Position numbers and translations under genes: made by a program. Below are positions 1,252 to 22,174 of a stretch of 64,000 bases of DNA, one piece after another. Within the stretch, counting starts at the first letter, position 1. The number at the start of each line of letters is the position of its first letter. The DNA comes from an uncultured Streptosporangiaceae bacterium (GTDB lineage Bacteria; Actinomycetota; Actinomycetes; Streptosporangiales; Streptosporangiaceae). The notes below the pieces were generated by a model, which saw only the letters and a program-made list of their open reading frames with translations, ran no database searches and had not been told where the DNA came from. The stretch is taken from the NCBI GenBank assembly GCA_964581815.1, contig CAZORE010000010.1, forward strand, positions 34,385 through 98,384. The letters are read 5' to 3'.

Positions 1252-1288
1252 GGCATCCCCTCCGGGTGGCTAGGTTGGTTGTATCCGT

Positions 1289-1326
1289 ACGATATCTCTT
1301 CCCGATATCTCGGTCCGATATATCGG
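1289..1326. promoter_or_regulatory. Triple operator-like repeat CGATATMTC at 13-bp period; third copy lies in the perfect palindrome CCGATATATCGG
   Basis: Copies start at 1290, 1303 and 1316; palindrome 1315-1326; located in the padR/DUF5318 divergent intergenic region. Confidence 0.6.
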
Positions 1327-1454
1327 TCAATGCCCAAGCATAGGTGACTGTTCCCCTGAGGGCAACCGCCCGTTCACTCATGGCGGCGTGCGGAGCGCCG
1401 CAAGAACCGGCACTAGGGCTACGCCGTGCAGGCCCCTCGGGTGATACTGAGGTC

Positions 1455-1868
1455 ATGGCAGGCATCGCTGCTCGTCGCTCCGTCGTGGATTACGCGCTTG
1501 CCCGGCGGGCCGCGCTCGCGTCGGTGTACGCCGGGCACACCACCGTGGCCGATGCCTGCGACGCTCATCCGTACCTGCTCCGCGCGGCCAAATACCACGG
1601 CGAGGCCACGGACGTGCGCTGCCCGATCTGCCGTAAGACGAACGTCACACATGTCACCTATGTGTACGGAGACGAACTCGGACAGTACGCGGGCCGGGTC
1701 AAGCGGACCCCTGAATTGACGGATATGGCAGCCGAATACGGCGAATTCAGGGTGTATGTGGTCGAGGTCTGCCAAAGTTGTGGCTGGAACCATCTCGCCA
1801 CGTCGTACGTGCTTGGCACCGGTGAGCCGCCTGCGGCGGGCCGCGGGCGCCGGGCGCGCCCGAACTGA
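1455..1868 (+). CDS. DUF5318-family protein, probably leaderless
   Basis: RSVVDYALARRA...CDAHPYLLRAAKYHGE..CPICRK...FRVYVVEVCQSCGWNHL. GATACT -10-like hexamer 6 nt before ATG 1455. Confidence 0.85.
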   Translation: MAGIAARRSVVDYALARRAALASVYAGHTTVADACDAHPYLLRAAKYHGEATDVRCPICRKTNVTHVTYVYGDELGQYAGRVKRTPELTDMAAEYGEFRVYVVEVCQSCGWNHLATSYVLGTGEPPAAGRGRRARPN

Positions 1869-2084
1869 GCCCTGCTTCCTGCCGCTGTCGTCCTCAAGGC
1901 CTGACGGGTCGGCATGGTCAGGAAAAAAGGTTCATCAGCCTGGGCGGTGAACGCCAGCAGGTAACGTTTGGGGTCGGCGGGACCAGGCTCCTGCCTTTTC
2001 AGCCACGGGCGCGCCCGGACGGCCTGACGAAACCCCAGCCAGGGTCGGGTCATGAGGGGTCGCTCACAGCCACTGCGAGGACGT

Positions 2085-5000
2085 GTGAGTAGCAACGACT
2101 TTGACGGGCCGTTCTTCAGGCCCGCTGGCGGGCAGGGAGCTGACGACCAGGGAGCCGGGGCGAACGGCGCAAGCGCACAGGGCACGGGCAACGGCGAGCT
2201 AGGCGCCGCCGGCGGTCCCAGGTACCAGGCGCCGGAGGGCTGGGGAAACGACGGCTTCTGGCGAGACTCGTCCATCGACGCGGACTACGAGACGAACACG
2301 CAGCGGCCGATCCGCCCGGGCCGGCACCGCTCGAACGGGGATCCCCGCTACAGCTACTTTTCCGACGGCAACGGCTGGCAGAACTCGCAGAACCCGGCCA
2401 CCCGGCCGGGCCAGTCAGGGGACTCCGCCTGGCCGGCCCAGGCACCGGACGCCACCACAATCGGCGCGACCCGCGTTGGATTCGGCGCGGGCCCCGTGGC
2501 GCCCGGGGGTCCCGCTGGTCCCGCTGGTCCCGCTGGTCCCGCTGGTCCCGGCGGCCCGGCCCGCCCCGGTGACCCTGGCTGGCGGGGCGGTCCCGGCACC
2601 GGCGGTCCAGCCGGCCCAGGCGGTCCCGCGGGCCCGGGCGGTCCGTGGCCGGGCGGTCCGGCGGGACCGGGCGGTCCGTGGCCGGGCGGTCCCGGCGGGT
2701 ACGCTCCCGGGGGCCCCGGAATGCCGGCCGGCCCAGGCGGCCCTGGCTGGCCTGGCGGCCCGGCAGGTCCCGGCGGCCCGGCGGGACCCGGTGGCCCGGC
2801 AGGACCCGGCGGCCCTCGGCGACCGGGCGGTCACGCCGGCCCGGGGCGGAACGGCAGGCGCAAGGGCGACTGGTGGCGCCGCTGGACGTGGCAGAAGGCG
2901 CTCGCCCTCACCGGCGGCCTCGCCCTGATCTTTGTGCTCGGCATGTTCGGCGTCTACGAGTACCTTTCCTCCTCGGCCACGATCCCCACCGCACTCGCCT
3001 CGGCGAACTACCAGAACACGACCGTCTACTACGCCGACGGCAAGAGGGTCATCGGCACCATCGGCTCGACCAACCGGCAGGATCTCGCCTACGCGCAGAT
3101 CCCCATGCAGTTGCAGGACGCCGTCGTCGCCGCGGAGGACAAGAACTTCTGGACCGAGGGCGGCATCTCGCCGACCGGCATCGTGCGCGCCGCCGTCCAC
3201 GACCTGACGACCAGTGGCAACAACAACGGTGGCTCCACGATCACCCAGGAATTCGTCCGGAATTACTACGAGGGCGTTGGCACCCAGCAGACGGCAAGCA
3301 GGAAGATCAAGGAGATCTTCATCGCGCAGAAGCTGGCTGGGACCAAGTCCAAGCAGTGGATCATGACGAACTACCTGAACCTGATCTACCTGGGTGAGAA
3401 CTCCTACGGCGTCGCGGCGGCCGCCCAGACTTACTTCGGCAAGCCAGTGTCGGAGCTGACCTGGTCACAGGACGCGTTGATCGCCGGCCTTATCCAGGCG
3501 CCGTCGACCTACCCGCTGCCCTCTAACCGGCCGGCGCTCATCGCCCGCTGGAAGTACGTGCTGCAGCAGCTGGTGCTCACCAAGGACATCACCGCGGCTC
3601 AGGCGAGCACGATGACGTTCCCCAAGCTGCTCACCGACTCGGCGACGAGTGCCTCGAAGGGTGCCTCGGAGATGGCGGCCTCGGGCGACCCGTGGTCACC
3701 GTACATCTTGAACGTGGTCTACAACGAGCTCACCTCCCCCAAGAGTCTCGGTGGGGATGGTATTTCGGTGTCGCAGGTGGAGACCGGCGGCCTCAAGATC
3801 GTGACCACGATCAGCTACTCGATGGAAAAGGAGATGTACAAGGCCGTCGACGCGAACATCGCCGCGATCAAGGCGACGCCCGGCGCCCAGTACCCCTCGT
3901 ACATCAGGATCGGCGCCGAACTGCAGAACCCCAATAACGGCGAGATCCTCGCCATGTACCCGGGCCCCGGGCAGAACATGTCCGCCGCGGACTGCAAAAA
4001 GTGGGACTGCAGCGATAACACCGCGGTCTACGCGCGCGAGCAGGTCGGGTCGTCGTTCAAGCCGTACGTGCTGTCCGCCGCGGTGGCGGCCGGCATGAAC
4101 GTCAAGACCAGCACGCTGAACGCGAGTCAGTACCTCTGCGTGCCACCGGACGGCCTGTCGGCCACCCTGTCCAAGACAATGAAGTATTACTCGGGCAGCC
4201 TGAGCGAGTGCGCGGACAACGGCCTCAACAGCTACTTCCCCGTCGAGAACGACGGCGGCGAGATCATCGGCAACCCGAAGAAGGGCGGCGGCACCACGGT
4301 GCAGAACGCCCTCGCCCAGTCGTCCAACACCGCGTTCACCGACCTCACCCACCGGGTCACCACGTCGAACGTGATCAGGATGGCGAAAGCCTTCGGCGTC
4401 AGCATCGCGGACTACCCCAACGGGTCGGGCCTGACCAGCGATGTCGGCCAAACGAACATCGCGCTCGGTATCGCGCCGCTGACGGTCAACGAGCAGACCA
4501 CGATGCTCTCCGCCATCACCAACGACGGCGTCTATCACCAGTCGCACATCGTTAAGTACTGGCAGCAGCCAGACGGCTCCGAGCAGACGCCGACGGTCGC
4601 GTCGCACGGGGTGCTCGACCCGTCCAACCCGACGACCAACGCGGAGCTCGACTCCCAGGTCCAGTACGCGATGGAAATGACGACGGTCGACGGCACCGGC
4701 ACCGCGGCCGCCTACGGGCTCGGCAGCCGGCAGATCATCGCCAAGACCGGAACGACGAGCGGCTCCACGGCCGGCTTCTTCATCGGCGCCATTCCCCAGT
4801 ACTCCCTGGTCGTGGGCATGTTCGTCGCGAACCCCGCGAACACATCGGAGAGCCTGGTGCCGCTCACCGGCGGCGGCTTCGGTGGTTACTGGCCCGCCAA
4901 GATCTGGAACACGTTCGCCCAGGCGGAGTTCGCCAACCTGCCACAGGAGACCTTCCAGAACGCTACGTTCACCGGCGCGGCGTGGAACCAGGTCGGCAAG

Positions 5001-5510
5001 ATCGCCCCGGACCAGATCAGCTGCTATATGGCGGACGGCAAGAAGCACAAGATGGCGGTCAAGACCTGCCCCACCCCGGCCCCCCAGGTCAACTGCGGCT
5101 TCGACCAGCAGACCGGGAACAACGACCTGTGCACCACCTGCACCTTCGACCAGGCGAACGGTCAGTTCGACAACTGCGGGCAGCCGACGCAGTGCTCCTT
5201 TAATCAGGCGGACGGTCAGTTCGACAACTGCGGGGGCGCCTCCCCGTCAGACTCGGCGACCTGCCAGCAGGGTGATCCCGCCTGTACCAGCGCTAGCCCG
5301 TCGCCCAGCGCTACCTGCACGGACCCGGCCAATCCCGCCTGCGCGACGGCCAGCACCAATGGCACCGGTACAAGCATTCCGACGGTCAGCCTTTCCCAGT
5401 CCGGCCTGGCCGTCGGCGGCGGCCTGGCCGGCCTGCCCGGCGCGGGCTCGGTGCTGTGGGCCGCGGCGTCTCGTCGGCGGCGCAGGCGCCGCGCGGGTAC
5501 GGCAAGATAG
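2085..5510 (+). CDS. ponA: Class A penicillin-binding protein (transglycosylase + transpeptidase) with Pro/Gly-rich N-terminus and Cys-rich C-terminal extension
   Basis: GT51 motifs [32 protein letters not shown]; transpeptidase SxxK (SSFK), SxN (SSN), KTG. GTG 2085 follows GAGGA; the ORF is open from 2052. Confidence 0.9.
2508..2549 (+). repeat. 9-bp tandem repeat GGTCCCGCT (about 4.7 copies, Gly-Pro-Ala) inside ponA
   Basis: Directly visible; part of a longer GPGGP/GPAGP low-complexity tract of about 2490-2850. Confidence 0.9.
5139..5234 (+). repeat. Duplicated 42-bp unit encoding C-x-F-x-Q-A-x-G-Q-F-D-N-C-G in the ponA C-terminal extension
   Basis: Copies at 5139-5180 and 5193-5234, 54-nt period. 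Confidence 0.85.
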
Positions 5511-5546
5511 CCACGTAGAGCTGATATCAGGAGCGGGAGCGCGGTA

Positions 5547-6890
5547 GTGCGGAACCGGTATCCGGCATTCCTCGGCGCGGGCGTCGCCGCGTCGGCGGTC
5601 GCGGCGCTGCTCGGCTACGCGCAGAAATTGCCGTGCAGCTCAGGCGGCGCGTGGAACACCTTCACCGGCCAGTTTCGCGACGCCTGCTACACCGACATCT
5701 ACCCGCTCTACTATGACGAGCAGCTGGCCGCGGGCAAGGTGCCCTACTACGGTCATCCGGTCGAGTACCCCGTCCTGATGGGCTGGATGATGGAAGCCGC
5801 GGCGTGGGCGGTCCACTCCGTCGCGGACGCCTACTCCCGCGGCCGGGACTTCTACTACGTGACGGTGCTGATGCTGGCCGTCTGCCTGCTCGTCGGCGTG
5901 CTCGCGACCGCGGCCACCGCGCACCGGGAGGGCGGCGGGGCGGGCTGGAAGGCGGCGCTGCTGCTCGCGCTTTCGCCCGGCCTCATCCTCGCCGCGTACA
6001 TCAACTGGGACCTGTTCGCGATGGCGCTCACCGCGGGCGGCATGGCCGCCTGGGCGGCGCGCCGGCCATGGCTTGCCGGGGCGCTGCTCGGGCTCGCCGT
6101 CGCGACCAAGTTCTACCCGCTGCTGCTGTTCGCGGCGCTGTTCCTGCTGTGCCTGCGCGCGGGGAAGCTGTTCGAGTTCGGCCAGGCGCTGACGGGCGGG
6201 CTCATCGCCTGGCTCGCGATCAACGTGCCGGTGGCGCTGACCGCCACCTCCGGCTGGGCCGAGTTCTACGCGTTCAGCCGGTCCCGCGGCGCCGACTGGG
6301 GATCGGTCTGGTACCTGTTCGAGCATTACAACGTGCCGGTGGTCGGTAACTCCTCGCTCGGCCAGCTGAACCTCATCACCTCAGGGTCGTTCGCCGTCGC
6401 GTGCGTGCTCATCGCCGTGCTCGCGCTCGCCGCCCCGCGCAGGCCCCGGCTGCCGCAACTCGGTTTCCTGTTGCTCGCTTCGTTCCTGATACTCAACAAG
6501 GTGTGGTCACCGCAATACGTGGTCTGGCTGCTGCCGCTCGCGGTGCTCGCCAGGCCCCGTATCTGGGCCTACGTGCTGTGGCAAGTCGCCGAGGTCGCCT
6601 ATTTCCTCGGCATCTGGGGCTACTTCGTCTACCTGTACAGCGCGTCCGGTGACGGCGTCCCCGGCATCAGCACCGGCTGGTACTTCGTCATCCTCACCGC
6701 CAGGCTGCTGACGGTCGCCGTGCTCGCGTCCACCGTGGTGGTGGACATCCTGCAGCCAGAACGCGACCGTGTCCGGGCGTCCGGCCTCAACGACGACCCC
6801 GCGGGCGGGGTGCTTGACGGCGCGCCTGACCGCCTGGTCCTCGGCTGGCGCGGGGTGGGCCGCCGTCCGGCCGAGGCCGCGGCGGGCTAG
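5547..6890 (+). CDS. Glycosyltransferase family 87 / DUF2029 polytopic membrane protein
   Basis: CYTDIYPLY, VEYPVL, NWDL, GLAVATKFYP, NKVWSPQYVVWLLPL; many hydrophobic segments; conserved position after ponA. Confidence 0.85.
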   Translation: MRNRYPAFLGAGVAASAVAALLGYAQKLPCSSGGAWNTFTGQFRDACYTDIYPLYYDEQLAAGKVPYYGHPVEYPVLMGWMMEAAAWAVHSVADAYSRGRDFYYVTVLMLAVCLLVGVLATAATAHREGGGAGWKAALLLALSPGLILAAYINWDLFAMALTAGGMAAWAARRPWLAGALLGLAVATKFYPLLLFAALFLLCLRAGKLFEFGQALTGGLIAWLAINVPVALTATSGWAEFYAFSRSRGADWGSVWYLFEHYNVPVVGNSSLGQLNLITSGSFAVACVLIAVLALAAPRRPRLPQLGFLLLASFLILNKVWSPQYVVWLLPLAVLARPRIWAYVLWQVAEVAYFLGIWGYFVYLYSASGDGVPGISTGWYFVILTARLLTVAVLASTVVVDILQPERDRVRASGLNDDPAGGVLDGAPDRLVLGWRGVGRRPAEAAAG

Positions 6891-10609: not shown

Positions 10610-10756
10610 GTCCGTGTTGGCACGGAGGCCAGGGGATCGGCACAATGTCAGAGCCGCCGATGACAGGCCCCTTTGACGGACGTCGATCGTCAGACCCCTT
10701 TGGTAGAACGGAGTCGACGCTTGGGTGGGGCGTTACGCGTGGGGAGGAGGCGTCCA

Positions 10757-12109
10757 GTGAGCGTTACCGAGTTGCCGCAGCGCGGCGACGAATTCGAGCG
10801 GATGCCGCCGCACGACGTCGCGGCCGAGCAGTGCGTGCTGGGCGGCATGCTGCTGTCGAAGGACGCGATCTCCGACGTCATCGAGGTGATCAGGCCCACC
10901 GATCACTACCGGCCGGCCCATCAGCTCGTGCACGAGGCCATCCTCGACCTGTATGCGCGCGGCGAGCCTGCCGACCCGATCACTGTCGCCAACGAGCTCA
11001 CCAGGCGAGGCGAGCTCACCCGCATCGGCGGCGCTCCCTACCTGCACACGCTCATCGCTTCGGTACCCACCGCGGCCAACGCCGGGTACTACGCGCGGAT
11101 CGTCAGGGAGCGGGCCATCCTGCGGCGGCTGGTGGAGGCTGGCACGCGGATCGTCCAGTTCGGCTACGCCGGCGACGGTGACGCCGATGAGCTCGTCGAC
11201 CGGGCGCAGGCCGAGGTCTACGCGGTCACCGACCGCCGCATCGCGGAGGACTACCACCCGCTGTCCGAGATCATGCCCGCCGCTCTCGAGGAGATCGAGG
11301 CGATCGGCGCGCACGGCGGCGGCATCAGCGGCGTCCCCACGGGCTTCGCCGACCTGGACGCCCTCACCAACGGCCTGCACGCCGGCCAGATGGTCGTCAT
11401 CGCGGCCCGCCCCGCCGTCGGCAAGAGCGCACTCGCACTCGACTTCGCGCGGTCGGCGACGATCAGGCACGGCCTCCCCACCGTGGTCTTCTCGCTGGAG
11501 ATGGGGCGGAACGAGATCACGATGCGGCTGCTGTCGGCCGAGGCGCGGGTGCCGATGCACGTGATGCGGACCGGCCAGATGAGCGACGATGACTGGGGCC
11601 GGCTCGCCAAGCGAATGAGCGAGGTCGCGGACGCGCCGCTGTTCATCGACGACTCGCCGAACATGTCGCTCATGGAGATCAGGGCCAAGTGCCGACGGCT
11701 CAAGCAGCGCCACGACCTCAAGCTCGTCATCATCGACTACCTGCAGCTGATGTCCTCGCCCAAGCGGACCGAGAGCCGACAGCAGGAGGTCTCCGAGATG
11801 TCCCGGTCGCTCAAGCTGCTGGCCAAGGAGCTTGAGGTGCCCGTGGTGGCGCTCTCCCAGCTGAACCGGGGGCCCGAGCAGCGCCAGGACAAAAAGCCGA
11901 TGTTGTCCGATTTGCGCGAATCGGGTTCTATCGAACAAGATGCGGATGTTGTCATACTTTTGCATAGAGAAGATGCATATGAGCGGGAATCGCCCCGGGC
12001 CGGTGAAGCGGACCTGATCGTCGCCAAGCACAGGAACGGGCCGACCGCGACGGTCACGGTGGCGTTCCAGGGGCACTACAGCCGCTTCGTCGACATGGCC
12101 CCAGGCTGA
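10757..12109 (+). CDS. dnaB: Replicative DNA helicase, intein-free allele
   Basis: PPHDVAAEQCVLGGML, AARPAVGKS (Walker A), FSLEM, IDYLQLM, LSQLNR, DLRESGSIEQDAD, IVAKHRNGPT; GGAGGAGG RBS before GTG 10757. Confidence 0.97.
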   Translation: MSVTELPQRGDEFERMPPHDVAAEQCVLGGMLLSKDAISDVIEVIRPTDHYRPAHQLVHEAILDLYARGEPADPITVANELTRRGELTRIGGAPYLHTLIASVPTAANAGYYARIVRERAILRRLVEAGTRIVQFGYAGDGDADELVDRAQAEVYAVTDRRIAEDYHPLSEIMPAALEEIEAIGAHGGGISGVPTGFADLDALTNGLHAGQMVVIAARPAVGKSALALDFARSATIRHGLPTVVFSLEMGRNEITMRLLSAEARVPMHVMRTGQMSDDDWGRLAKRMSEVADAPLFIDDSPNMSLMEIRAKCRRLKQRHDLKLVIIDYLQLMSSPKRTESRQQEVSEMSRSLKLLAKELEVPVVALSQLNRGPEQRQDKKPMLSDLRESGSIEQDADVVILLHREDAYERESPRAGEADLIVAKHRNGPTATVTVAFQGHYSRFVDMAPG

Positions 12110-12117
12110 CGGCTGTT

Positions 12118-12193
12118 TGTAGGTTCTCATCACAGTTGGCCAACGTCTCATCGATCTGGCCAACAGATGGCCAATTGGCCAGATCGATGAGAC
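12118..12193. repeat. dnaB-proximal transposon end: terminal IR plus inverted pair of 19-bp sites
   Basis: Terminal site 12118-12142; GTCTCATCGATCTGGCCAA (12145-12163) and its perfect reverse complement (12175-12193). Confidence 0.85.
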
Positions 12194-12249
12194 ACCAGGT
12201 GGCCAGTCTGGGCTGATGGGATGCTGGTGCGGAGGTTACGGGGGCGGCC

Positions 12250-13176
12250 GTGCTTCTGCGAGAGGGTCGAGCATTGCCGTATGACCGCTACCTGCCTGGC
12301 GAGGTCATGTTCTGGGACATCGATGACATCGCCGAGTCCCTCTCCTGGGATCCAGATCCGCTGACGCTGAGACTCCAGCTGAGGTCCCCCGACCCGTACA
12401 GCGGACGGCCAGTCCCGGCCTGCTGGGTGGTTTACACGCGGGGATTGTTCCTTGTGACGTGTGATCTGACCGGGTTCGCTGACATGGCCTGCCGTCACGG
12501 CCTGACCGTCGTTGCTTGCTCGGGTGGTGAGCTGGTGCTGCAGGAGGAGGGCTGCTCCAAGCAAACGGTCGTCCGCCTGCTGGATCGTGATCCGCCGCGA
12601 AACGCATCGCCGCGCTGGTGGCTAGAGCAGGAGGGCGATTGGATCAGCTGGTATAAGACGGAGGAGCGCAGGCGCCGGGACGCTGCTCTCCTTAAGGAGA
12701 CGCGGGTGACCGATGAACAGCATGCAGAGGTCGACGCCCTGATCGCCGAGGCTCGTGCGGCAGGCCGCTGGCTGGGCGGATATGAAGTGGCAGCGCGTTT
12801 CAGGCTGTCGCTTTACGGTGCCGAGCGTCTGCTGTGGGAACGCATGCCCCCGCCGCTTACGGACGATGAGGTCGCGGACGTGGTCCGCCGCCTGGCCCTT
12901 GCCGGCGGCGGCAGGGTCAGGGCGCAAGACGTGGTGCCGTTCGGGGCCGCGAGACCGCGTGCGGTCATAGCCGTGAGGCAGTACTACGGGCCGGACTTTT
13001 CGAAGCTCGAGCGCGACGAGCAGGGACGAGTGACGGGGCCGCAGGTCCTTGAGGCCTACGGCCTGTGTGCGGGCACGTTGTACTGGAGGGTCCGGCGCGG
13101 CAGCCTGAAAGTGGTCGGTAAGGCAGGCAGGGAGAGGCTGTTCGACTACGAGCAGGTCCGCGCGGTCCTAGGCTGA
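12250..13176 (+). CDS. Hypothetical protein with C-terminal MerR/excisionase-like HTH
   Basis: C-terminus VTGPQVLEAYGLCAGTLYWRVRRGSLKVVGKAGRERLFDYEQV fits an HTH_17-like pattern; the N-terminal part is not recognised. Confidence 0.6.
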   Translation: MLLREGRALPYDRYLPGEVMFWDIDDIAESLSWDPDPLTLRLQLRSPDPYSGRPVPACWVVYTRGLFLVTCDLTGFADMACRHGLTVVACSGGELVLQEEGCSKQTVVRLLDRDPPRNASPRWWLEQEGDWISWYKTEERRRRDAALLKETRVTDEQHAEVDALIAEARAAGRWLGGYEVAARFRLSLYGAERLLWERMPPPLTDDEVADVVRRLALAGGGRVRAQDVVPFGAARPRAVIAVRQYYGPDFSKLERDEQGRVTGPQVLEAYGLCAGTLYWRVRRGSLKVVGKAGRERLFDYEQVRAVLG

Positions 13177-13292
13177 CGGCTGAAGCGAGCTGGGTACGCG
13201 CGGCTCAAGGGGCCCCGGGCACACCTCGCTGGACCTGCCGGGTGGAGGGACTCCTCGATGCACCCGGGTGCACGCAGGGAACAAGAGGGCAG

Positions 13293-14840
13293 TCATGGAC
13301 GCGGGGACGGGCCTGGGGTCGCCGGAGTATGGTCGCGTGCGCTGCGGCGGAGGGTTCCCTGCCTGCTCGGGCTATTCCACCCGGCCAGCCGGCGGCTTAG
13401 ATCAGCGGGCGGAGACCGCCAGGCTGTCCCGGCTAGGCCTGCGGATTCCGGCTGCCAGGCGACCGGCTCGTCGATACGGTGACGCAGCAGCAGCCGTTCC
13501 GCTTCCAGGGCCACGTAGTCCGCGAGCCCGCTGGCCTCGTTGTCACGGAACGCGGCATACCGGGCGCGGTCAGGGTGATGCCACGGAGCCAGGCTTCCTT
13601 CGGAGAATCTGATGTCCCTGCCGGTCAGGGTTTCCCAGAGGAGCATTGTCACGTACCGGCGGCGGCGCGCGGTGAGTACGATGCCAGCGCCGCGGCAAGC
13701 CCTGCGGAGCCGGGTGGGTGTCAGGAGGCCGAGGTCACCGAAGACGTGCCGACGCCTGGCGTAGTCGATCGGCGGGGGGTGAGCGGTCAGCTCTTCCACG
13801 AGGGCGTCGATGCTTGCGAGCAGTTGCTCGAGGCGGCCCTGACTGTCAAGGCGGCGCAGGACCGAGGTGACTGTCGCGCCTGCCTGCCGGGGAAGGACGA
13901 GGCTGGCGGCGACGCGCTGCCACTCCTGGCGCGTGCCGCACCGCACGATCGCCATCGACAGGGTGACGGTGAGCATGCCGGTGTCCTGGTCTCCCTCGCG
14001 GGCCAGCGCGCTGGCGACGCTCTTCCACACAGCCTGAGGGACGAGCCGGGCGGAGACGGAAGCCAGCCGGCCCGGCGTGAAGGGCCAATCCGCTGCCGTG
14101 GTCCTGCCCGGGGGACGCCGGGGGACGGCGTTCCCGGTCCGGTAGGTAAGCATGTCGGCTGCGCTCATGTCGGCCGCGCGCCGCCAGAGGATGATGGCGT
14201 CGAGCACCGGCGACCCGGTTGCGCCCAGGTCCAGGTGCGTCGGCCACGGCGCCGAGTGCGGCCGTTGCCGGAACGGGAACGCCGGCGACGGTGACCTCGC
14301 CGGGAGCGGTGATGAGGTCGTTGAGCCACCGCTGGCAGGCGAGTAGCGGGTCCGAGGGGTCCAGGTCATGCGGCTCCTGCCCGGCCAGGGACGCGCCGCA
14401 CCGCGGAAGGCGCGGGCCGGCTTTTCCCGTGGCAGGCGCTGGGGCAGGGTGGCAGCAGCGCCGCGGGTCGATGAGGTGGTCGAGCCGGTTCTCGCCCGCC
14501 CGCGGGCGGCGGCCGCACGCGGCGCACGCGCAGGACATGAGCATGTCCAGTTCAGGTGCCAGGACAATGACCAGCGGCCGTCGTTCTCCGTAAGGCAGCG
14601 CGGGCAGAACCCGGACCCGGACGCCCGGGCCCACGTGCTGAACCGGCCGGCCGGAAACCCTCGCCCCGGAGCTCCTGCCAGACCCAGCGCGGCGTACCGC
14701 TCCAGGACCGCGCTGTCCAGCCGGCCGACGGCGGTCCCGGTCTGCCGCTCCAGGGAACGCAGCGCCTCATCGCCGATCCCGCGGATGAGGCCGTAGGGGG
14801 TGCGGGGGGCCGGCAGGCCGAGGGCCGGCACGAGTTCGCA
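13293..14840 (-). pseudogene. tniQ: TniQ/TnsD-like target selector, 5'-truncated, with two frameshifts (about 14530 and 14240)
   Basis: FCPRCLTENDGRWSLSWHLNWT (TniQ CxxC-W motif) continues in another frame as CAACGRRPR...CGASL...LLACQRWL, then returns to PPIDYARRR...EPVAWQP. Confidence 0.75.
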
Positions 14841-15102
14841 GTGCCTGGACCACGTCCTCGTGCTCGGCGAGCGGCATCTCCGCGAGGTCCTGGCCGGGTA
14901 CGCCCGGCACTATAACGGGCATCGTCCGCATCAGGGCCTGCAGCAGGAACCCCCACTGCGCCGACCCAGCGAGGCAGTCGATACCACCGCCAGTATCGAG
15001 AGCAGGAAGGTTCTCGGCGGCCTGATCAGCGAGTACAGCAGAGCGGCTTAGCAAGCGCGAAAACGCCGGTTCAGCGCCCATACGCGAGTTTGGCACGGCA
15101 CA
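14840..15102 (+). mobile_element. IS481-like integrase-core element, 3' fragment with one terminal end
   Basis: CLDHVLVLGERHLREVLAGYARHYNGHRPHQGL...VLGGLISEYSRAA* (stop 15051), then GAGTTTGGCACGGCACA ending in ACA at 15102. Confidence 0.7.
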
Positions 15103-15186
15103 CCCGTCCCCGGTCACCTGGACCAGCCCGGCCGCGTCGTCGAACGGGCCGGGTGTGACTGGCATTAGGTGATGGCCGTTCGGAAT

Positions 15187-16086
15187 CTACATCGGTCCGT
15201 TCAAGACATCGGCGATGAAGTGCACGATTCGTTCTGCCGCTCGCCGCTCTGGATCAAGGTCAGGGTTGTAGACGCCAAGGCTCCATCCGCGGGCGCCTCC
15301 GACTTGCAGCGCCGATGAGGCGATGGCGGTTAGCTCGGGCCACGACAGCCCGCCGGGCATTGCGTCGTCGCTAGCGGCTCCGCAGGCGCTGAACTCATGC
15401 CTGTCGAGCACATCCAGGTCGATGTGCAGCCACCATCCGGAAGCTTGTGATGTGACCTGCTCGGCGGCTTTGCGGCCGCCTCCTGCCGGATCGTCGTGGA
15501 GGTCAGCGGCGGTACGGAGCCGTACTCGGTCCGCGATCGTGGGGGCTGCGATTTCGCGGCGGTACAGGCCGTCGCGCATCCCCAGCATGGCGATTGCCTC
15601 CGGCCGCAGCACGCCCGCATGGCTGCGCAGTGGTTCCGGCGCTCGCTGGCCAGTCAGGCCCAGCAAGAAGGCTACCTCCATGTTGGCGGCCTCTCCGGTC
15701 GTGGAGGCTTCCATGGTCGTGGCATCTTCGTGGCCGTCGATGAAGACCAGGCCAGCCCCACCGAGAATGTCCGCAAGCGCAGGCACCGCTCCGAGGAGTA
15801 CTGCGCAGTCAGCGCCGTAGATCAGCGGAAACCGTCCTTGTGCCAGAGTAGCCCGGACCCGCGCATGAAGCCTGCCCACCATTTCCAGCAGCGCGCGCTC
15901 ATTCATGAACCCAGCGGGTCCACGTGCCGCAGTGGGCTCCGAGACGATGACATCCGGCGTCAAGCTCGCGCGATCCTGCAGGGCCGCCGCCAGGCCAGCA
16001 CCCCGTAGCGCGGCGGGAGCACTTGCTTGCCCGGCTAGCCGCCCCGAGCCATCGAAGCACACGCCAATAAGATCAATTGCGTCCAA
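15187..16086 (-). CDS. Arginase/ureohydrolase-family protein
   Basis: [30 protein letters not shown]. Start placed at TTG 16086 behind a GAAGGGA RBS; the ORF is open to 16353. Confidence 0.85.
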
Positions 16087-16195
16087 CCGTGGCGGTCCCT
16101 TCTCGGACCACTTGCTCGCCCTTGATTTCTCCCCGATCCTAACAATCGTGCAATCGACCGGCGGGTACGGGGGTATGTCGGGCTGGCTGACCCCG

Positions 16196-16561
16196 TCAGC
16201 GAAGGGGCCTGCGAGGGTCGGGAAGATAGACGGCTTCGAGCAGGTAGGCGTGGCCGGTCTCACGGCCCCACTGCGCGAGCGCGGTGTGCCCTTCGCGGGC
16301 AGGTACCCCGTCTCGGCCGGCCTGGAGATCTCGCTGGGAGTCCCACTGGGCATAGACGGCGGCGTGCGTGCCGTCGAGCCCTCGATGCAGGGACATGGAG
16401 CGGAAGCCGGGGCGACTGGTGAGTACGTGGATGCGCTCGTGCATGGTGGCCAGCCATCCGTCTACCTGGGCCTCGGCGGCCATCTCCCAGGTCTGAATGA
16501 AGCAGATCCCGCCGTCGGCCGGATCGAGGCGGGGCGCCGTTCCCGTGCGCTCGGCGGTCAT
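16196..16561 (-). CDS. Antibiotic-biosynthesis-monooxygenase (ABM) family protein
   Basis: [26 protein letters not shown]; start overlaps the upstream hydrolase stop. Confidence 0.75.
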
Positions 16562-17451
16562 GGGGCCGCCGTCGAAGCCGCGGACGGCGATGTGAAGAAT
16601 CGGCGCAGCGTATCACCTAGCACGGCTGGCTGCTCCTCGGCCGGGTAGTGCCCGCACCGCTCGATGATCACCTCCTCCGAATGCGGCGCGACCTGGCGGA
16701 TGCTCGCGGCGACCAGGCCGCCGAGCCGCTGCCTGCCGCCGACAGACAGAACGGGACAGCCGGGAACGGGCAGGTCGCCGAAATCCCGGACGTCGTCAGC
16801 CAGGGTCCGGTAGTAACCGAATCCGGCTCGCATGGCCCCGGGAGCGGAGTAGCAGCGCGCATACTCATCCAGGTCAGCCGGGCCGATCGCGCCGGGAGAG
16901 TAAGCATGCTGGCGGTAGAAGTAGGCCAGGAACTCGCGCTCCCGGCCGGCGAGGAGCCACTCCGGCACGTCCAGCATCGTGGCCAGGCTCATCCACCAGG
17001 CGTGCTGCTGGCCGAGGCTGATATCGGCGAGCTCGGCCAGGCCGAAGCCGGGCAGCACGGTCTCGATCGCCGCAAAGTGCGACACCAGGCCGGGATACGC
17101 GGCGGTGAGGTAGTACCCGACGGCGCCACCCCAGTCATGCCCGGCAACGCGGGCCTGGCCGAGCCCGAGCTGATCGATGAGCGCGGCCATATCGGCCGCG
17201 ACGGTCCGCTTGTCGTAACCGCCCTCGGGCCGGTCGGAATCGCCGCAGCCGCGCATATCCACGGCCACGGTGGTGTATTGAGCCGCTAGTGCCGGGATGA
17301 CCCGCCGCCAGGCATAGCTGGTCTCCGGCCACCCGTGCAGCAGCAGGACCAGAGGTCCGTCACCGGCTGTCCGCAGGTGCAGCGAGATCCCGTTCACTGT
17401 CATCCGCTCGCTGCGCACGGCTGCCGGGCCGGCCGCCGCTGCGTCGGTCAC
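16558..17451 (-). CDS. Alpha/beta hydrolase (epoxide-hydrolase-like)
   Basis: LLLHGWPETSYAWR, DMRGCGDS, GHDWGG nucleophile elbow, CGHYPAEE; GTG 17451 overlaps the upstream stop. Confidence 0.9.
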   Translation of the reverse strand: MTDAAAAGPAAVRSERMTVNGISLHLRTAGDGPLVLLLHGWPETSYAWRRVIPALAAQYTTVAVDMRGCGDSDRPEGGYDKRTVAADMAALIDQLGLGQARVAGHDWGGAVGYYLTAAYPGLVSHFAAIETVLPGFGLAELADISLGQQHAWWMSLATMLDVPEWLLAGREREFLAYFYRQHAYSPGAIGPADLDEYARCYSAPGAMRAGFGYYRTLADDVRDFGDLPVPGCPVLSVGGRQRLGGLVAASIRQVAPHSEEVIIERCGHYPAEEQPAVLGDTLRRFFTSPSAASTAAP

Positions 17452-17777
17452 AGGGACCAATCGACGGGGTAGTTGACGATCGGGACAAAAGCAACGCCGG
17501 CCTTCTCGGCGGCGGCACGGGCATCGACGATCATCTCCTTCAGCGTGCTCATCTGCCGGGCATGCTCGTCGGATTGCCACAGGCTGACGTGGACCATCGA
17601 CCCGTCCGGGGAGGCGCCGGCGTAGTAGCTGATCAGGCCAGGCAGCTGCCGGATCGCAGGCGACAGGTAGCGGCCGGTCGCCGCGATCATGACCTGGATT
17701 TCACCGAACCGGGCCGGATCGAAGTCACCGCGGGAAATACGGACAACGGCTGCGGCTGGCAGCGGTGTCGTGGTCAT
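17448..17777 (-). CDS. Small dimeric alpha/beta-barrel (ABM-like) protein
   Basis: AIRQLPGLISYYAG...MVHVSLWQSDEHA pattern; first gene of a coupled operon divergent from a TetR. Confidence 0.6.
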   Translation of the reverse strand: MTTTPLPAAAVVRISRGDFDPARFGEIQVMIAATGRYLSPAIRQLPGLISYYAGASPDGSMVHVSLWQSDEHARQMSTLKEMIVDARAAAEKAGVAFVPIVNYPVDWSL

Positions 17778-17891
17778 GGGCTTGACCTTCCTCGTGCTAG
17801 ATTACGTTTCGATCCCCTATCGGAATTAATCCTACAGGAACTGGCCGCCGGAACGGCCGCAGGATGCAGGATGGTGAGCGTGTGCGCTGAG

Positions 17892-18518
17892 ATGAGCCGA
17901 CCCGCGGGCCGGCCCAGGAACCCGGGGCTGGACGCAGCCATCCTGGTCGCCGCTGAGCGTCAGCTCGGCGAACGCGGGTACGCGCGGATGTCGCTGGAAT
18001 CGGTAGCCGCCGCGGCGGGCACCACCGTGCCGACGGTCCGGCGCAGGTATCGCGGCAAGGCCGACCTGGCCGCAGCGGTCATCGGATCGCTGCGCGTCAC
18101 TAACCTGCCCGCGGGAGCGGCGACGCCGCGGGCTGACGCGCTGGCGATCCTGCGGAACTTTCAAGCCAACCTGGGACGGAAGGACGCCATGGCACTGGTC
18201 GGCAGCCTGCTCGCCGAGGAACGCCGGCACCCGGAGCTGCTGGAGATCTTCCGCGAGCGCCTTGCCGGGCCACGGCGGGCCAGCTTGCGCCAGGCGCTGG
18301 CGGACGGCGCAGCGGCCGGCCAGCTGCCCGCGTCCATCGACCTAGACGCGCTGGCCAGCATGCTGATCGGCTCCTTTTACGCCCGCTACCTGCTCAGCTC
18401 CGACCTGCCAGCCGACTGGGCAGAGCGCACCTTGCAGGCGGTCTGGCCGAACCCGCCGGCAGGTGCACGGGTTCCGCCGACCCGCCGCCTGGCTACGTGG
18501 CCCAATCGACCAAGTTAG
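17892..18518 (+). CDS. TetR/AcrR-family regulator
   Basis: GRPRNPGLDAAILVAA..LGERGYARMSLESVAAAAGTTVPTVRRRYRGKADL HTH. Alternative start at 17871. Confidence 0.9.
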   Translation: MSRPAGRPRNPGLDAAILVAAERQLGERGYARMSLESVAAAAGTTVPTVRRRYRGKADLAAAVIGSLRVTNLPAGAATPRADALAILRNFQANLGRKDAMALVGSLLAEERRHPELLEIFRERLAGPRRASLRQALADGAAAGQLPASIDLDALASMLIGSFYARYLLSSDLPADWAERTLQAVWPNPPAGARVPPTRRLATWPNRPS

Positions 18519-18780
18519 CGGCGCGCGTCAAGCCGGAACACACCACTGGCGCGGCCCGACGGTTTTACAGCTCGGCCCATCCGGGGCTAGTCGCGTTCGC
18601 GTGAAATCTTCGGCGCGTGCGGGCGGGGTTGGATGGTGGCGGGCTGCCCGTGACACCGGCAGGTTTGTGGGATCTGAGCCCGTTTTACAGCTTGGCGCCG
18701 GGACCTGACCTTTGAGGATTGCTTTCTGCTGCCGTGAGCGCGCTGGCCGGCCGGTGGCTTTGCCGCGTGCCCGCAAGGCT

Positions 18781-19160
18781 TCAGGCTCGGGTTACCATTC
18801 GCGCGAGGTTCTCGATGGACCGCTCCAGCGCCGCTGCCGGCGCGACGGGCCACGTTAGCCTGGCTCGCAGCTCGTCGCTGATCGCGTGCCAGTCGCAGTA
18901 GTTGGTCACATCGCAGGTGGTGTCGCCCACCGGTTCGATCTGCCAGCCGTAGACCCGCCCGCTGGGTGCCTTCCCGGCTAGCGCGGGAGCCCATTCGAGG
19001 AGGTGGTCCGGGACGATGCGGGTGACAGTGTTGAGGATCGTGTAATACCTGGGGAGGCTGCCGATGCCGGCGACGTCGCCGAGGGGCTGGCGATCCATCT
19101 CGATGTCGAAGGTGTCGCCGGCCGCCTTCAGCCGGTGGGCGCCGCCCACGTTCCGCAGCG
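18781..19160 (-). pseudogene. 5'-truncated SRPBCC/polyketide-cyclase-like gene
   Basis: GDTFDIEMDR...NTVTRIVPDHLLEWAP...GRVYGWQIEP...CDVTNYCDWHAI; the N-terminus is replaced by IS630 sequence. Confidence 0.55.
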
Positions 19161-19280
19161 CTGGCCTGCTCCTTGTGGCTGGCGTGGTCGGTGCCGCCGA
19201 GCGCGAAGTAGCGCAGGGCGGTGAACGGGGATGCGGTTTAACCAGGACGAATTCGTCGGCATGCAGGCGATTTCGACGCT
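19160..19280 (-). mobile_element. IS630-family transposase C-terminal fragment
   Basis: Minus strand reads VEIACMPTNSSWLNRI then, after a frameshift, FTALRYFALGGTDHASHKEQ. Confidence 0.7.
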
Positions 19281-19393
19281 TGAGAACGGCAGCCCGGCTC
19301 GCTGACCTCGTGGCACTGCCCGCCTGGTGTCCGGCAGGGACAGGTGCCCCGGTCCTTTGCTCCCGCATCGCCGGGATGCGATCTTCATGCCCG

Positions 19394-19864
19394 TCAACCC
19401 TGAGCCTGCGTGGCGTCAGCCAGGCTGTCGGCGTAGCTCGCGGTGAGCTGCTGTGCCCGGTTGAGGAAGTTGTCGATGAGCCGCAGTTGCTCGTCTGTGT
19501 ACGCGGACAGGAGTTCCGCGGTCTGACGGATCAGGCTGCCGAAGACTTCCTGATCCCGGGAGGTGGTGGCCTCGGTGATGGCCACGATCTGACGGCGGCG
19601 GTCGGCGGGGTCGGGTTGACGGCGGGCATATCCGGCGCGCTCCAGGCGATCGATGACCGTGGTTACGCCCCCGGTCGTGAAGCCAATCAACTGAGCCAGG
19701 TCGGATGGCGCCAGCGGCCCCGCTCGTCCCACGATGTCAAGCGCGCGCATGTCCGTGCGGTTGAGGCCGTACCGGCCGGCCGCCACATGATCCAGGCGGT
19801 CGATCTCCGTGCTCAGCGCGCGCAAGCTGGCCACGACCTGACCGGTAAGCTCACGTCGGTTCAT
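19394..19864 (-). CDS. MarR-family regulator
   Basis: GLNRTDMRALD...LAPSDLAQLIGFTTGGVTTVIDRLERAGYARRQPDPADRRR. Confidence 0.92.
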   Translation of the reverse strand: MNRRELTGQVVASLRALSTEIDRLDHVAAGRYGLNRTDMRALDIVGRAGPLAPSDLAQLIGFTTGGVTTVIDRLERAGYARRQPDPADRRRQIVAITEATTSRDQEVFGSLIRQTAELLSAYTDEQLRLIDNFLNRAQQLTASYADSLADATQAQG

Positions 19865-19874
19865 AGCTTGCCAA

Positions 19875-19903
19875 TCTAGTAATCATTAATGTAAGTTACT
19901 AGA
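19875..19903. promoter_or_regulatory. Probable MarR operator TCTAGTAA-N13-TTACTAGA
   Basis: Perfect 8-bp arms in the AT-rich divergent intergenic region. Confidence 0.6.
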
Positions 19904-19944
19904 AATTCTAGCAGAAATCTGAAGTCTTGCGAAGGGTGAGAGAC

Positions 19945-20676
19945 ATGACCGACGCATTGGACCGCGGCCCCGCGATGGCCGTGACCGCGACCGGCAGGAG
20001 TGGCCCCGTGATCTCCCGAAGGTGGGTGCTGCTGGCCAGCGCCGCGGGGGCCGTGGGCGCGGTGGGCCTTGGCGCCTCGTTCGGCATACTGCCCAAGCCC
20101 CCGCCACTCAACGGCCCGCTGGCCGTGCTGATTCGCTATGCGGCCGGCCACCAGCACGCCATGATGGCGGCGGCGTGGCTTGAGGGTAGCGGGACGCTGC
20201 TGTACGTGATCTTCGCACTGGCGCTTGTCCACCTGGCCGGCGACCGGGCCGGGCTGGCTGGGCGGGTCGCCACGATGGCATCGGCGGTCGTGGTTGCGGT
20301 GAGCCTGGTCTATGACGTGACGCTGATCGCGATCGCACAGTCGGCCTCGCTCGGCGGGCAGCAGGCGACAACGGCCACGGTCGCCTACGGCCTGTTCGCG
20401 GCTGCGGAGCACGCCTTCCTCCTCGCCCCGCCGCTGCTCCTTCCGCTTGGCCTCATCCTGCTGCGGACTCCGATCCTGCCCCGCCCGTTCGCCGTGCTGG
20501 CCGTCATCCTCGGAGTGACCAGCCCGGTGCTCGGCCTGGTCGGCCTGTTCACCGTCACCGCCAACAACAACGGGCCGGTTGGCGCGGCGATCAATGCGCT
20601 GGTCGCGCTAGACGGCCTTTGGGTCCTTGCTGCCGCCGTGATGCTGCCATTGCGCCATCCGGAGCGGTGTGAGTAA
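19945..20676 (+). CDS. Multi-pass membrane protein (DUF4386-like)
   Basis: Five to six hydrophobic segments; divergent from MarR. ORF open from 19927. Confidence 0.7.
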   Translation: MTDALDRGPAMAVTATGRSGPVISRRWVLLASAAGAVGAVGLGASFGILPKPPPLNGPLAVLIRYAAGHQHAMMAAAWLEGSGTLLYVIFALALVHLAGDRAGLAGRVATMASAVVVAVSLVYDVTLIAIAQSASLGGQQATTATVAYGLFAAAEHAFLLAPPLLLPLGLILLRTPILPRPFAVLAVILGVTSPVLGLVGLFTVTANNNGPVGAAINALVALDGLWVLAAAVMLPLRHPERCE

Positions 20677-20695
20677 CGGAGGGCGCGGGCTGAGG

Positions 20696-20799
20696 AATTG
20701 GCCAGATCGATGAGAAAGTTCGCTGGCCAGATCAGTGAGAAAAGCCGAGGAAGCACAGGTCAGCACCCACCCGGTGGCCAAGTCGGATGAGAACCTACA
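20696..20799. repeat. Distal transposon end: three co-oriented sites plus terminal ACA
   Basis: AATTGGCCAGATCGATGAGA (20696-20715, identical to 12173-12192), CTGGCCAGATCAGTGAGA (20723-20740), TGGCCAAGTCGGATGAGAACCTACA (20775-20799). Confidence 0.85.
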
Positions 20800-20881
20800 G
20801 CCGTGCTCGGACACGCCTCAAGCGACACGACCCACGCCAGAGGGTCTGAGCCCGCCGAGAAGCCGCCAGCTGAGCCGGTCG

Positions 20882-20903
20882 GGCCTCGACGGTTGTCGAG
20901 GCC
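20882..20903 (-). terminator. Hairpin after the MBL gene
   Basis: GGCCTCGAC-GGTT-GTCGAGGCC, 9-bp perfect stem 18 bp past the stop. Confidence 0.55.
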
Positions 20904-20921
20904 GTTCCGTACGGTCGGCGC

Positions 20922-21716
20922 CTATTTCGTGCCGTTGACCATGGCCTGCCGCGCGGCCGCGCGAGGACCGTCGGTAAATGGGTCGCCGTGGCCGGGCAGG
21001 ATCAGCAAGTGCGGCAGCACGGCGATCCGGTCGAGCGAGGCCGCGGCAGCGGCGCTGTCGTGGGTGAAGCCGCGGCAGACCAGGCCCGGGCCGGTGTGGC
21101 CGGTCAGGCCGTCGTGGGTGACCAGGGCGTCGCCGGTGAACAGCAGTCCGCGGTCGGCGAACAGGTAGGCCACGCTGCCGAGGGTGTGGCCGGGCAGCCC
21201 GATCGGTTGGGGACGCCCGGGAACGGTCTGGAGGGGCTGCTCGTCGGTCAGGGTGCTCACGTTCTGGACCTTGGGTGCGTTGAACGCCCCGTGACGGGCC
21301 ATGTGCAGCGGGGTGCGGATCGCGCTAGGCCGGCGCAGCAGGTAGGGCAGCACGGAGCGTTCCGGCTTCGCATGCCGGGTGGCGCTGCGCGGCCCATCAG
21401 CCAGGATCGGCGCGTCGTGCTGGTGAACCCAGATCTCGGCGCCGGCTCCGGCGCGCAGGCGTTCGGCGAGGCCGGTGTGGTCGGGGTGGGCGTGGGTCAG
21501 CAGCACCGCGCGGATGTCGGGCAGGTCCCGTCCGAGGCGGGTGACCGTCTCCTGGAGCTGGCCGAAGTGGCCCGGCAGGCCCGAGTCGACCAGGACGAGG
21601 CCGTCGGGGCATTCGACCAGGTAGAAGTTGACGACCTCGCTGCCGAGTCGGTGGACGCCGAGCGCGGCCAGGTCGGGGGACTGCTGCGGGGCGCTGTTCG
21701 GGATCGTGCTAGACAT
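20922..21716 (-). CDS. Metallo-beta-lactamase-fold hydrolase
   Basis: VLVDSG, LLTHAHPDHTG (HxHxDH), PGHTLG, FTGD, PGHG; AAAGGA RBS before ATG 21716. Confidence 0.9.
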   Translation of the reverse strand: MSSTIPNSAPQQSPDLAALGVHRLGSEVVNFYLVECPDGLVLVDSGLPGHFGQLQETVTRLGRDLPDIRAVLLTHAHPDHTGLAERLRAGAGAEIWVHQHDAPILADGPRSATRHAKPERSVLPYLLRRPSAIRTPLHMARHGAFNAPKVQNVSTLTDEQPLQTVPGRPQPIGLPGHTLGSVAYLFADRGLLFTGDALVTHDGLTGHTGPGLVCRGFTHDSAAAAASLDRIAVLPHLLILPGHGDPFTDGPRAAARQAMVNGTK

Positions 21717-21778
21717 GCTTCCTTTAGGTGGGGTTTTGTGCGGTGAGCACGAGGTTCCGTCGTGCGGGGGGAGCCCGA

Positions 21779-22174
21779 TCATCCGGTGGTGGGCCGTCGG
21801 AGACCCACGGCCGCGCGGCCGGGGGCGCGCTGCATTCGGATGAGTGCGACAGCAGTCAGCAGCGCGAGGACGGCGGGTCCGACAGCGTCGGTGAAGGCGC
21901 CGGCGGAGCCGCGGATGACGGCGTCGACCGCTTGGACCGCGACCAGTGCCGATCCGACCAGCAGCAGGCCGTCGGGGCGCCGGAGGGCGACCACGGCGAT
22001 CAACAGCGCCACGAGGACCGCCGAGCGGTCGCCGGCGAACCAGGAGGTGGTGGAGTGCTGGGAGGCGACGGTGGCTATTCCGAAGCCCATGCTGACCGCC
22101 GCGTTGAGTCCGGCGACGGCTGCCGCGATCCAGAAGTCTCGCCCAGTCCGATGTTCAGTGAGTGCATTGTTCAT
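21779..22174 (-). CDS. Small membrane protein (about 4 TM)
   Basis: Hydrophobic segments; divergent from MarR across only 35 bp. Confidence 0.7.
   Translation of the reverse strand: MNNALTEHRTGRDFWIAAAVAGLNAAVSMGFGIATVASQHSTTSWFAGDRSAVLVALLIAVVALRRPDGLLLVGSALVAVQAVDAVIRGSAGAFTDAVGPAVLALLTAVALIRMQRAPGRAAVGLRRPTTG

Follow-up and report, generated by a model that had tools for sequence, protein, structure and literature searches.

The TnsD site of the transposon Tn7 covers 36 bp of coding sequence at the 3′ end of glmS, and the insertion takes place about 25 bp downstream, where the sequence of the insertion point is irrelevant (PMC2918618). Other targets of the Tn7-like elements include, besides glmS, the tRNA genes, comM (TnsF, Tn6022), nrdB (in Acinetobacter), nrdD, and CRISPR repeats (Faure et al., PMC10293859; a 2025 preprint, 10.1101/2025.07.27.667033). 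Benler et al. (2021) described a Tn7-like clade dominated by Actinobacteria, which is experimentally uncharacterised (PMC8649781), and in Streptomyces the telomeric Tn7-like transposons are subtelomeric and associated with tap, tpg, and ttrA (10.1101/2024.11.13.623437). Here, we address a Tn7-like element located directly behind dnaB, the gene for the replicative helicase, in a 64,000-nucleotide stretch of DNA from an uncultured Streptosporangiaceae bacterium (GCA_964581815.1, contig CAZORE010000010.1, positions 34,385 to 98,384), which as a whole is called “the window” below.

An earlier note on this DNA, made from the sequence alone, considered the element to be a relic homing to the 3′ end of dnaB and knew of no dnaB among the described Tn7 attachment sites. 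Indeed, in the literature searched, which yielded unrelated papers only, dnaB was nowhere described as an attachment site of the Tn7 family, and it is absent from the text and one supplementary file of Benler et al. (PMC8649781). With a probability of about 0.85, we interpret window positions 12118..20799 as an actinobacterial Tn7-like transposon which has lost its autonomy by deletion and occupies the attachment site of its family behind dnaB. The odds are somewhat better than even for a broader statement: the dnaB 3′ end represents a previously undescribed attTn7-type site for a set of actinobacterial Tn7-like transposons, which have TniQ proteins diverged to 28% identity, place the same end 6–9 nt past the stop codon, and carry their operon either way round, this locus being a hotspot for recurrent integration and defence islands in Actinomycetota.

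The element and its ends

Relatives of the element were gathered by TniQ homology from protein-database contigs, one GTDB genome scan, and one JGI metagenome scan; their loci are denoted by L and proteins by P numbers. The closest TniQ (P0001, 92% identical to that of the window) belongs to L001. In the window, the Tn7-like element covers 12118..20799 (8682 bp), being opened at 12118 by TGTAGGTTCTCATC (start TGTAGG) and closed at 20799 by GATGAGAACCTACA (end CCTACA). The earlier note placed it at 12107-20804, where an element does reside, but this span had taken in the dnaB stop codon and 5 nt of the flank. The features of the dnaB junction and of the two ends are as follows.

10673..12109, + strand: dnaB, replicative helicase, with the stop codon TGA at 12107-12109 (Pfam DnaB_C E=2e-108, DnaB E=4e-34)
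12065..12099, + strand: conserved 35-nt dnaB block TTCCAGGGGCACTACAGCCGCTTCGTCGACATGGC, a putative TniQ recognition region (from conservation and spacing)
12110..12117, no strand: 8-nt spacer cggctgtt separating the dnaB stop from the terminus of the transposon; the target duplication should have its left copy here
12118..12193, + strand: dnaB-proximal, Tn7R-like end with the TGTAGG terminus, two inward sites, a half-site at 12167-12174, and one inverted site at 12176-12192
12194..12249, + strand: conserved non-coding leader upstream of orf308, with a degenerate fourth site at 12200-12221, identical to L001 at 56/56 positions
12250..13176, + strand: orf308, with a weak C-terminal HTH_17-like helix-turn-helix (Pfam HTH_17 E=0.004, below the curated cutoff)
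20696..20799, + strand: dnaB-distal, Tn7L-like end with three spaced sites and the CCTACA terminus

Thus, the element does start 8 nt after the dnaB stop, as had been noticed before. The terminal inverted repeat, previously given as 22/25, is correct for its first 25 nt, and a repeat finder extends it to 28 nt (24/28 = 86% complementary, 12118-12145 / 20772-20799). The three TGGCCA-type sites claimed for each end were all located; they follow the pattern TGGCCA-N5-(A/G)TGAGA and occupy 12125-12142(-), 12146-12162(-), and 12176-12192(+) in the dnaB-proximal end, and 20699-20715(+), 20724-20740(+), and 20775-20792(+) in the dnaB-distal one. When TGGCCANNNNNRTGAGA is searched for with at most one mismatch, the 64-kb window gives 5 matches, 4 of them inside the two ends, against 0.61 expected from shuffling (0/100 shuffles get to 5). 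The 20-mer AATTGGCCAGATCGATGAGA, reported earlier as identical at both ends, starts at 12173 and 20696.

The proximal end packs three sites and the half-site into 76 nt, while the distal end has three sites in 104 nt, with spacings of 25 and 51 nt resembling those in the distal end of L009, Catenulispora rubra DSM 44948 (27 and 49 nt). The TGT...ACA termini combined with asymmetric multiple sites are typical of the Tn7 family, and these sites are putatively bound by TnsB. The third proximal site is inverted with respect to the other two, and together with site 2 it constitutes a perfect 19-nt palindrome (12145-12163 / 12175-12193) with an 11-nt spacer. The layout of this end recurs in 9 other element lineages, and a regulatory or boundary role of the inverted site is suggested by its retention in all 10 lineages whose end can be recognised.

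The proximal end (12118..12193) is identical to that of L001 at 75/76 positions, and together with the leader (12118..12249) at 131/132, while the identity beside the ends is 85-87% for orf308, 91-93% for tniQ, and 93% for the dnaB 3′ end. This difference points to either a strong constraint on the end or its recent conversion. A terminator and promoter scan revealed nothing above the shuffled expectation. An RNA gene is not involved as a target, as neither Rfam models nor a tRNA scan gave any hit in the window.

The dnaB site and its probable recognition

Occupied dnaB sites are represented by 11 distinct loci (window/L016, L001, L019, L018, L008, L017/L026, L015/L021, L009, L036/L038, L033, and L032). 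In all 11, the terminus is located 6–9 nt past the dnaB stop, and the spacer has a different sequence in each. A recognisable end architecture is present in 10 of the 11, which share the proximal layout and direct the same end toward dnaB; the exception is L032, a decayed mini-insert with only same-orientation TGTCAT repeats. Within the TniQ clade of at least 42% identity, tabulation of the flanking genes and distances places all eight informative loci, in which the DNA reaches the relevant end (window/L016, L001, L019, L018, L008, L017/L026, L015/L021, and L009), directly behind dnaB, with the same end 7–9 nt past the stop. Site- and orientation-specific insertion behind a conserved gene, characteristic of the Tn7 family, is thereby observed, and the suggestion of the earlier note that the dnaB 3′ end is the insertion site of this family is supported by the 11 occupied sites sharing one position.

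L011 (Nocardioides ginsengisoli) was considered as a further occupied site and not counted; its dnaB lies 4.8 kb upstream of tnsA, and the ends are not identifiable. In several loci, dnaB is interrupted by inteins (L008 9071-12238, L018 1022-4195, L021 2515-5895, L033 10001-12490), and DnaB aligns there in 2–3 segments. P0064 has Intein_splicing and LAGLIDADG domains, and the transposon target at the extreme dnaB 3′ end is unaffected by the inteins.

Distant TniQ lineages reside away from dnaB: L010 (Gordonia), L013, L024, L030, L040-L042 (Streptomyces, beside ku), and L043 (Mycobacterium). Such a clade-restricted distribution is what Tn7-type selectors would be expected to show. One of the distant elements, L040 4771-12184 (Streptomyces, GCA_020092625.1), is located beside ku and has an RHS/YD-repeat toxin-like cargo; its TniQ is about 28% identical over half its length, and the ku neighbourhood may represent a different attachment site. 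Two TniQ genes are present in L010 2646-11938, L030 231-9647, and L024 3025-10612; L010 and L030 have two TnsC/TniQ pairs per apparent operon, and no dnaB occurs within the fetched DNA of these three loci.

The DnaB protein of the window ends with ...VAFQGHYSRFVDMAPG (equally written ...AFQGHYSRFVDMAPG). The 35-nt block of its gene was found in 13/13 aligned host sequences, with variation essentially confined to the codon third positions, and across the TniQ clade the transposon terminus is located 17–19 nt past this block (ending ...GACATGGC). Since the dnaB coding end is the sole conserved feature near the junctions, with no host-to-host similarity at or beyond the insertion point, we infer that the block is read by the C-terminal domain of TniQ, which would set the position and orientation of insertion through TnsC. 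In the AlphaFold model of the L001 TniQ (pLDDT 78.9), the N-terminal 200-270 residues fit the solved TniQ structures with probability 1.0, and the C-terminal domain is helical and confidently folded. The whole-chain fold search gave no PDB match for this domain.

One may also suppose that homing is real but its signal is a different one: a DNA structure or terminator, or a separate protein, such as that encoded by orf308, acting together with TniQ. The weak HTH_17 match of orf308 fits this supposition, as does an archaeal Tn7 preprint proposing that an HTH_17 protein beside a short TniQ is a separate DNA-binding module (10.1101/2025.07.27.667033). However, TniQ is long in the present elements, and orf308, which is 81% identical to a 318-aa ORF of L001, has no homologues in the nine other lineages that target dnaB. 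On the latter ground, we rejected orf308 as a necessary selector, and given also that conservation near the junctions is confined to the dnaB coding end, we consider a signal of this kind unlikely. Orf308 matches PADLOC mad1 at E=1e-6 over the helix-turn-helix only, and no similarity was found between it and the MerR-like ORF of L033.

Occupied and empty sites in close hosts

Reverse sampling via close DnaB homologues provided six informative 3′ ends, of which three are empty (L031, L035, and L037/L039) and three occupied (L032; L033, with a 3.8-kb relic behind dnaB; and L036/L038, with an element possessing tnsA, tnsB, tnsC, tniQ, and Abi_2 cargo). Thus, empty sites, which the earlier note had recommended looking for in relatives, occur in near-identical hosts. 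In the empty L031 and the occupied L032, DnaB is the same protein (P0051) and the downstream sequences agree at 99.7%, while in L032, 1936 bp absent from L031 are inserted after TGATTGGTG, beginning with TGTAGGTTCC. Similarly, the empty L037/L039 and the occupied L036/L038 share an identical DnaB (P0102); the empty site reads TGATAGGCACG followed directly by TGGGG, and the occupied one TGATAGGCGCG followed by TGTAGGGTCTCA. Transposition may still occur. The L032 insert itself (11360-13295) is gene-poor, 1.9 kb in size, with a TGTAGG terminus 6 nt past the dnaB stop and four TGTCAT repeats; in appearance it is a mini-element in decay whose ends belong to another subtype.

These pairs largely refute a historical explanation of the dnaB adjacency, by which a single ancient insertion was vertically inherited and diverged together with its hosts. 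In its favour, the hosts are all related actinobacteria with DnaB proteins 68–98% identical, and the age and decay of the window copy are evident. Nevertheless, contigs with identical DnaB differ in the presence of the element, every junction has its own spacer, and the similarities of the elements do not follow those of the hosts: between the window and L019, the identity is 98.5% for DnaB and 57% for TniQ, while for L019 and L018 the respective values are 90.8% and 86.6%. Moreover, the TniQ proteins of L036 and L001, which occupy the same position, share only 28.6% identity; therefore, very different selectors use the same spot. With these data, we regard the single insertion as very unlikely.

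Intact relatives and the transposition machinery

A protein search with the window tniQ ORF revealed about 36 close homologues of 450-860 aa, the TniQ domain being present in most of them. The L001 operon consists of tnsA (251 aa), tnsB (703), tnsC (358), and tniQ (626). Behind tniQ lie a 318-aa homologue of orf308 in reverse orientation, the TGTAGG end, and the 3′ part of dnaB (its last 38 codons). The 251-aa product of tnsA scores above the curated cutoff (110 bits) of the NCBIfam model NF033179 TnsA_like_Actin (“TnsA-like heteromeric transposase endonuclease subunit”), with E=5e-72; TnsB matches Mu-transpos_C and the solved TnsB structures (7svw, E=7e-13), and TnsC matches TniB/AAA_22. TniQ of the intact relatives matches Pfam TniQ at E=5e-20. 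The same tnsA-tnsB-tnsC-tniQ set was found in L009, L015, L017/L026, L028, and L036, so that complete copies, whose occurrence in relatives had been envisaged earlier, are available in L001, L009, L015, L017/L026, and L036. Since these relatives encode TnsA, TnsB, TnsC, and TniQ, the family is Tn7-like in the strict sense and not Tn5053-like. The family as a whole, whatever its targets, is large: at E<=1e-30, the TniQ profile retrieves 715 clusters formed at 50% identity.

In L003 (972-9429), tnsC is split by an 8.4-kb insertion which contains two tyrosine recombinases, a DUF6262 protein, and an IS21-type IstA/IstB pair.

Elements of the Tn5053/Tn402 type (TniA-TniB-TniQ-TniR) lack TnsA, possess the resolvase TniR with a res site, and target the res sites of plasmids and transposons. 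The domains of TniQ, TniB-like, and Mu-transposase-C-like type are common to these and Mu-like elements, and the window copy has no tnsA; hence, one may ask whether it belongs to these replicative, res-site hunting or Mu-like groups. This is highly improbable: in the intact relatives a TnsA-like endonuclease gene is located directly upstream of tnsB, no resolvase or res site was seen (with no resolvase called in L001, L009, L015, and L026), and the insertions are chromosomal, site-specific, and located behind a housekeeping gene. Least of all can the repeats be host regulatory or operator sequences around dnaB, as the operator-like perfect 19-nt palindrome at 12145-12193 might imply, since they recur 8.6 kb away in inverted form with TGT/ACA termini, always accompany tns genes or their remnants, and are missing from the empty dnaB loci of near-identical hosts, which already refutes this possibility.

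For the Tn7-like transposon inserted behind dnaB, the following mechanism may be proposed. TnsA and TnsB would excise the element at its TGT...ACA termini, TnsB recognising the TGGCCA-N5-ATGAGA-type repeats in both ends, and TnsC would connect the transposase with the target selector. The long TniQ (about 630-750 aa), composed of an N-terminal TniQ zinc-finger core and the helical C-terminal domain, would recognise the DNA encoding the DnaB C-terminus (AFQGHYSRFVDMA). Insertion would then occur approximately 17–19 nt onward, 6–9 nt past the stop, with the densely packed Tn7R-like end toward dnaB and with duplication of 5 bp. In this way the essential gene would be kept intact, and the element would gain a safe site conserved across hosts.

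Target duplication and operon orientation

Several points weigh against the interpretation proposed here. The evidence comes mostly from metagenome contigs, and the recognition sequence is delimited by conservation and spacing alone. The 5-bp duplication is lacking in the window copy (CTGTT vs. GCCGT), as the earlier note had itself observed, and in the apparently complete L009 (GGCTC vs. CTCGC). The distal ends of L001, L015, L017/L026, and L036 are not in the fetched DNA, where they were searched for with the reverse complement of the proximal terminus and lineage-specific site patterns, so no intact element with both ends and a duplication is documented. Finally, across lineages the tns operon has opposite orientations relative to the fixed ends, unlike in classical Tn7.

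Two weaker candidates for a duplication were not counted. In the window, an offset of 1 nt gives 4/5 matching positions (GCTGT vs. GCCGT), which is within chance, and in L009 the match is limited to 3 nt (CTC). In one relative, the relic L033 (12489-12510 and 16230-16262), the duplication is perfect (GCCGG, 5 bp): the proximal end aligns with that of L036 except that exactly the terminal TGTAGG is missing, and the same 5 nt stand ahead of this gap and behind the distal CCCCTACA. In L032, compared with the empty L031, GGTG is duplicated at the far junction (4/5 bp). Together, L033 and L032 support a 5-bp duplication for the family, and the mismatched right flank of the window copy may possibly result from a later rearrangement beside its distal end. 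Among the cargo of L033 are genes for a VWA/VIT protein and a MerR-like ORF.

As for the operon, in L009, L015, L017/L026, and L036 dnaB and the proximal end are followed by tnsA, tnsB, tnsC, and tniQ, which face away from dnaB as in Tn7. The operon is reversed in the window, L001, L008, L018, and L019, with tniQ converging on dnaB, while the proximal end is the same. Therefore, the transposition module was inverted inside the element in some lineages. One can speculate that this inversion was mediated by the inverted site copies in the two ends (12146-12163 vs. 20698-20715).

Decay and cargo of the window copy

The TniQ/TnsD-like gene which had been recognised inside the element proves to be a pseudogene, located and compared by tblastn with the intact L001 TniQ. 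Its remnants are distributed over three frames, with aa 39-139 at 14535-14837, aa 143-244 at 14242-14547, and aa 311-626 at 13308-14255; an internal deletion has removed about 200 bp, and codons 1-38 are gone. A 512-aa minus-strand ORF (13293..14831) matches Pfam TniQ at E=8e-9 over the profile positions 53-136 only, this match being partial because the gene is a pseudogene. The DNA homology between the window and L001 breaks off at 14839, inside tniQ codon 38, and tblastn with the L001 TnsA, TnsB, and TnsC gave no match to tnsA, tnsB, or tnsC in the 64-kb window. Therefore, the window copy is a non-autonomous relic and not a functional member of the family, in accordance with the term “relic” applied to it earlier. 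The loss of tnsA, tnsB, tnsC, and the first 38 tniQ codons would have occurred after the insertion, followed by the frameshifting decay of the remaining tniQ. Both ends look intact, so mobilisation in trans is the most that this copy could still undergo. The inner part of the element is composed as follows.

13293..14839, - strand: tniQ/tnsD-like pseudogene (tblastn with intact L001 TniQ, 90-95% identity)
14840..20695, no strand: cargo region replacing tnsC, tnsB, and tnsA (Pfam and NCBIfam matches), with the six genes below
15187-16353, - strand: arginase-family gene
16558-17580, - strand: alpha/beta hydrolase
17562-18518, + strand: TetR regulator
18781-19368, - strand: ORF without an assigned family
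19394-19864, - strand: MarR regulator
19927-20676, + strand: DUF4386-like membrane protein

This cargo is composed of ordinary metabolic and regulatory genes, none of which matched the PADLOC defence models. The stretch 14840..20695 is common only to the near-identical metagenome contig L016 (Ga0265342_10008542), in which positions 34-6481 are 99.9% identical to window 12001-18448, relic included; therefore, the same strain or population was sampled in the environmental data set.

The cargo of the intact relatives is rich in defence-type genes, while the window relic is devoid of any of them. It includes an SbcCD-like pair and an AAA_15/UvrD (Gabija-like) pair in L026 (6959-17084), a CBASS-like set (SMODS, ThiF, JAB/TIR/SAVED) in L030 (10057-14293), the Abi_2 gene of L036 (12018-12929), and a capP-like M78 peptidase, MazG, and HMUDK_hel in L001 (262-4876).

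Beyond the distal end, the first gene of the window (20922-21782) encodes an MBL-fold hydrolase weakly similar to the subclass B3 metallo-beta-lactamase models, far under their cutoffs. The genes behind dnaB differ in every relative examined. The right flank (20800-21500) has no similarity to any fetched locus; therefore, the native sequence behind dnaB in the window host could not be reconstructed.

Comparison with known Tn7-like systems

If dnaB is accepted as a target, an essential replication gene joins the short list of the Tn7-family attachment sites, and the experimentally untouched actinobacterial Tn7-like clade gets a concrete target, the 35-nt dnaB block. This would explain why the genes directly behind dnaB vary among close actinobacterial relatives and would mark a spot in which mobile defence and accessory genes may be sought. 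A TnsABC+TniQ system whose insertions go to a single neutral site, conserved universally in high-GC Gram-positives, could also serve as a single-copy integration tool for actinomycetes.

The elements resemble Tn7 in the set of TnsA, TnsB, TnsC, and a TniQ-domain selector encoded by the intact relatives, in the TGT...ACA termini with several transposase-type sites per end and the dense end toward the target gene, and in an insertion point set at a constant short distance behind the stop codon of a conserved essential gene, irrespective of the local sequence. The 5-bp duplication of Tn7 was seen here in L033 but neither in the window copy nor in L009. They differ from Tn7 in the target, which is dnaB instead of glmS, and in the distance of insertion (6–9 nt past the stop vs. 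about 20 nt in Tn7). Further differences are the TniQ C-terminal domain, which has no match among the solved structures, the inversion of one proximal site, the operon placed in either orientation, and the state of the window copy, which is a deletion relic. The prototypical glmS-homing TnsD elements combine glmS with TnsE, while the target of the dnaB-site loci is dnaB, and no TnsE-like second selector was called beside tniQ in the loci examined.

With the clade of Benler et al., these elements share the actinobacterial hosts, the TnsA proteins of the relatives scoring above the NF033179 cutoff, and the defence-type cargo (L026, L030, and L036). The telomeric elements of Streptomyces are likewise actinobacterial and detected by the same TnsA model, whereas the present ones adjoin dnaB, near the rpsF-ssb-rpsR-rplI cluster. 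From Tn5053/Tn402 they are separated by the TnsA of the intact relatives and by the chromosomal housekeeping gene used as a target. Their principle would be that of the non-glmS Tn7-like families, in which a modular TniQ/TnsD selector was retargeted to another conserved site: this principle is well known, while the dnaB target appears to be new.

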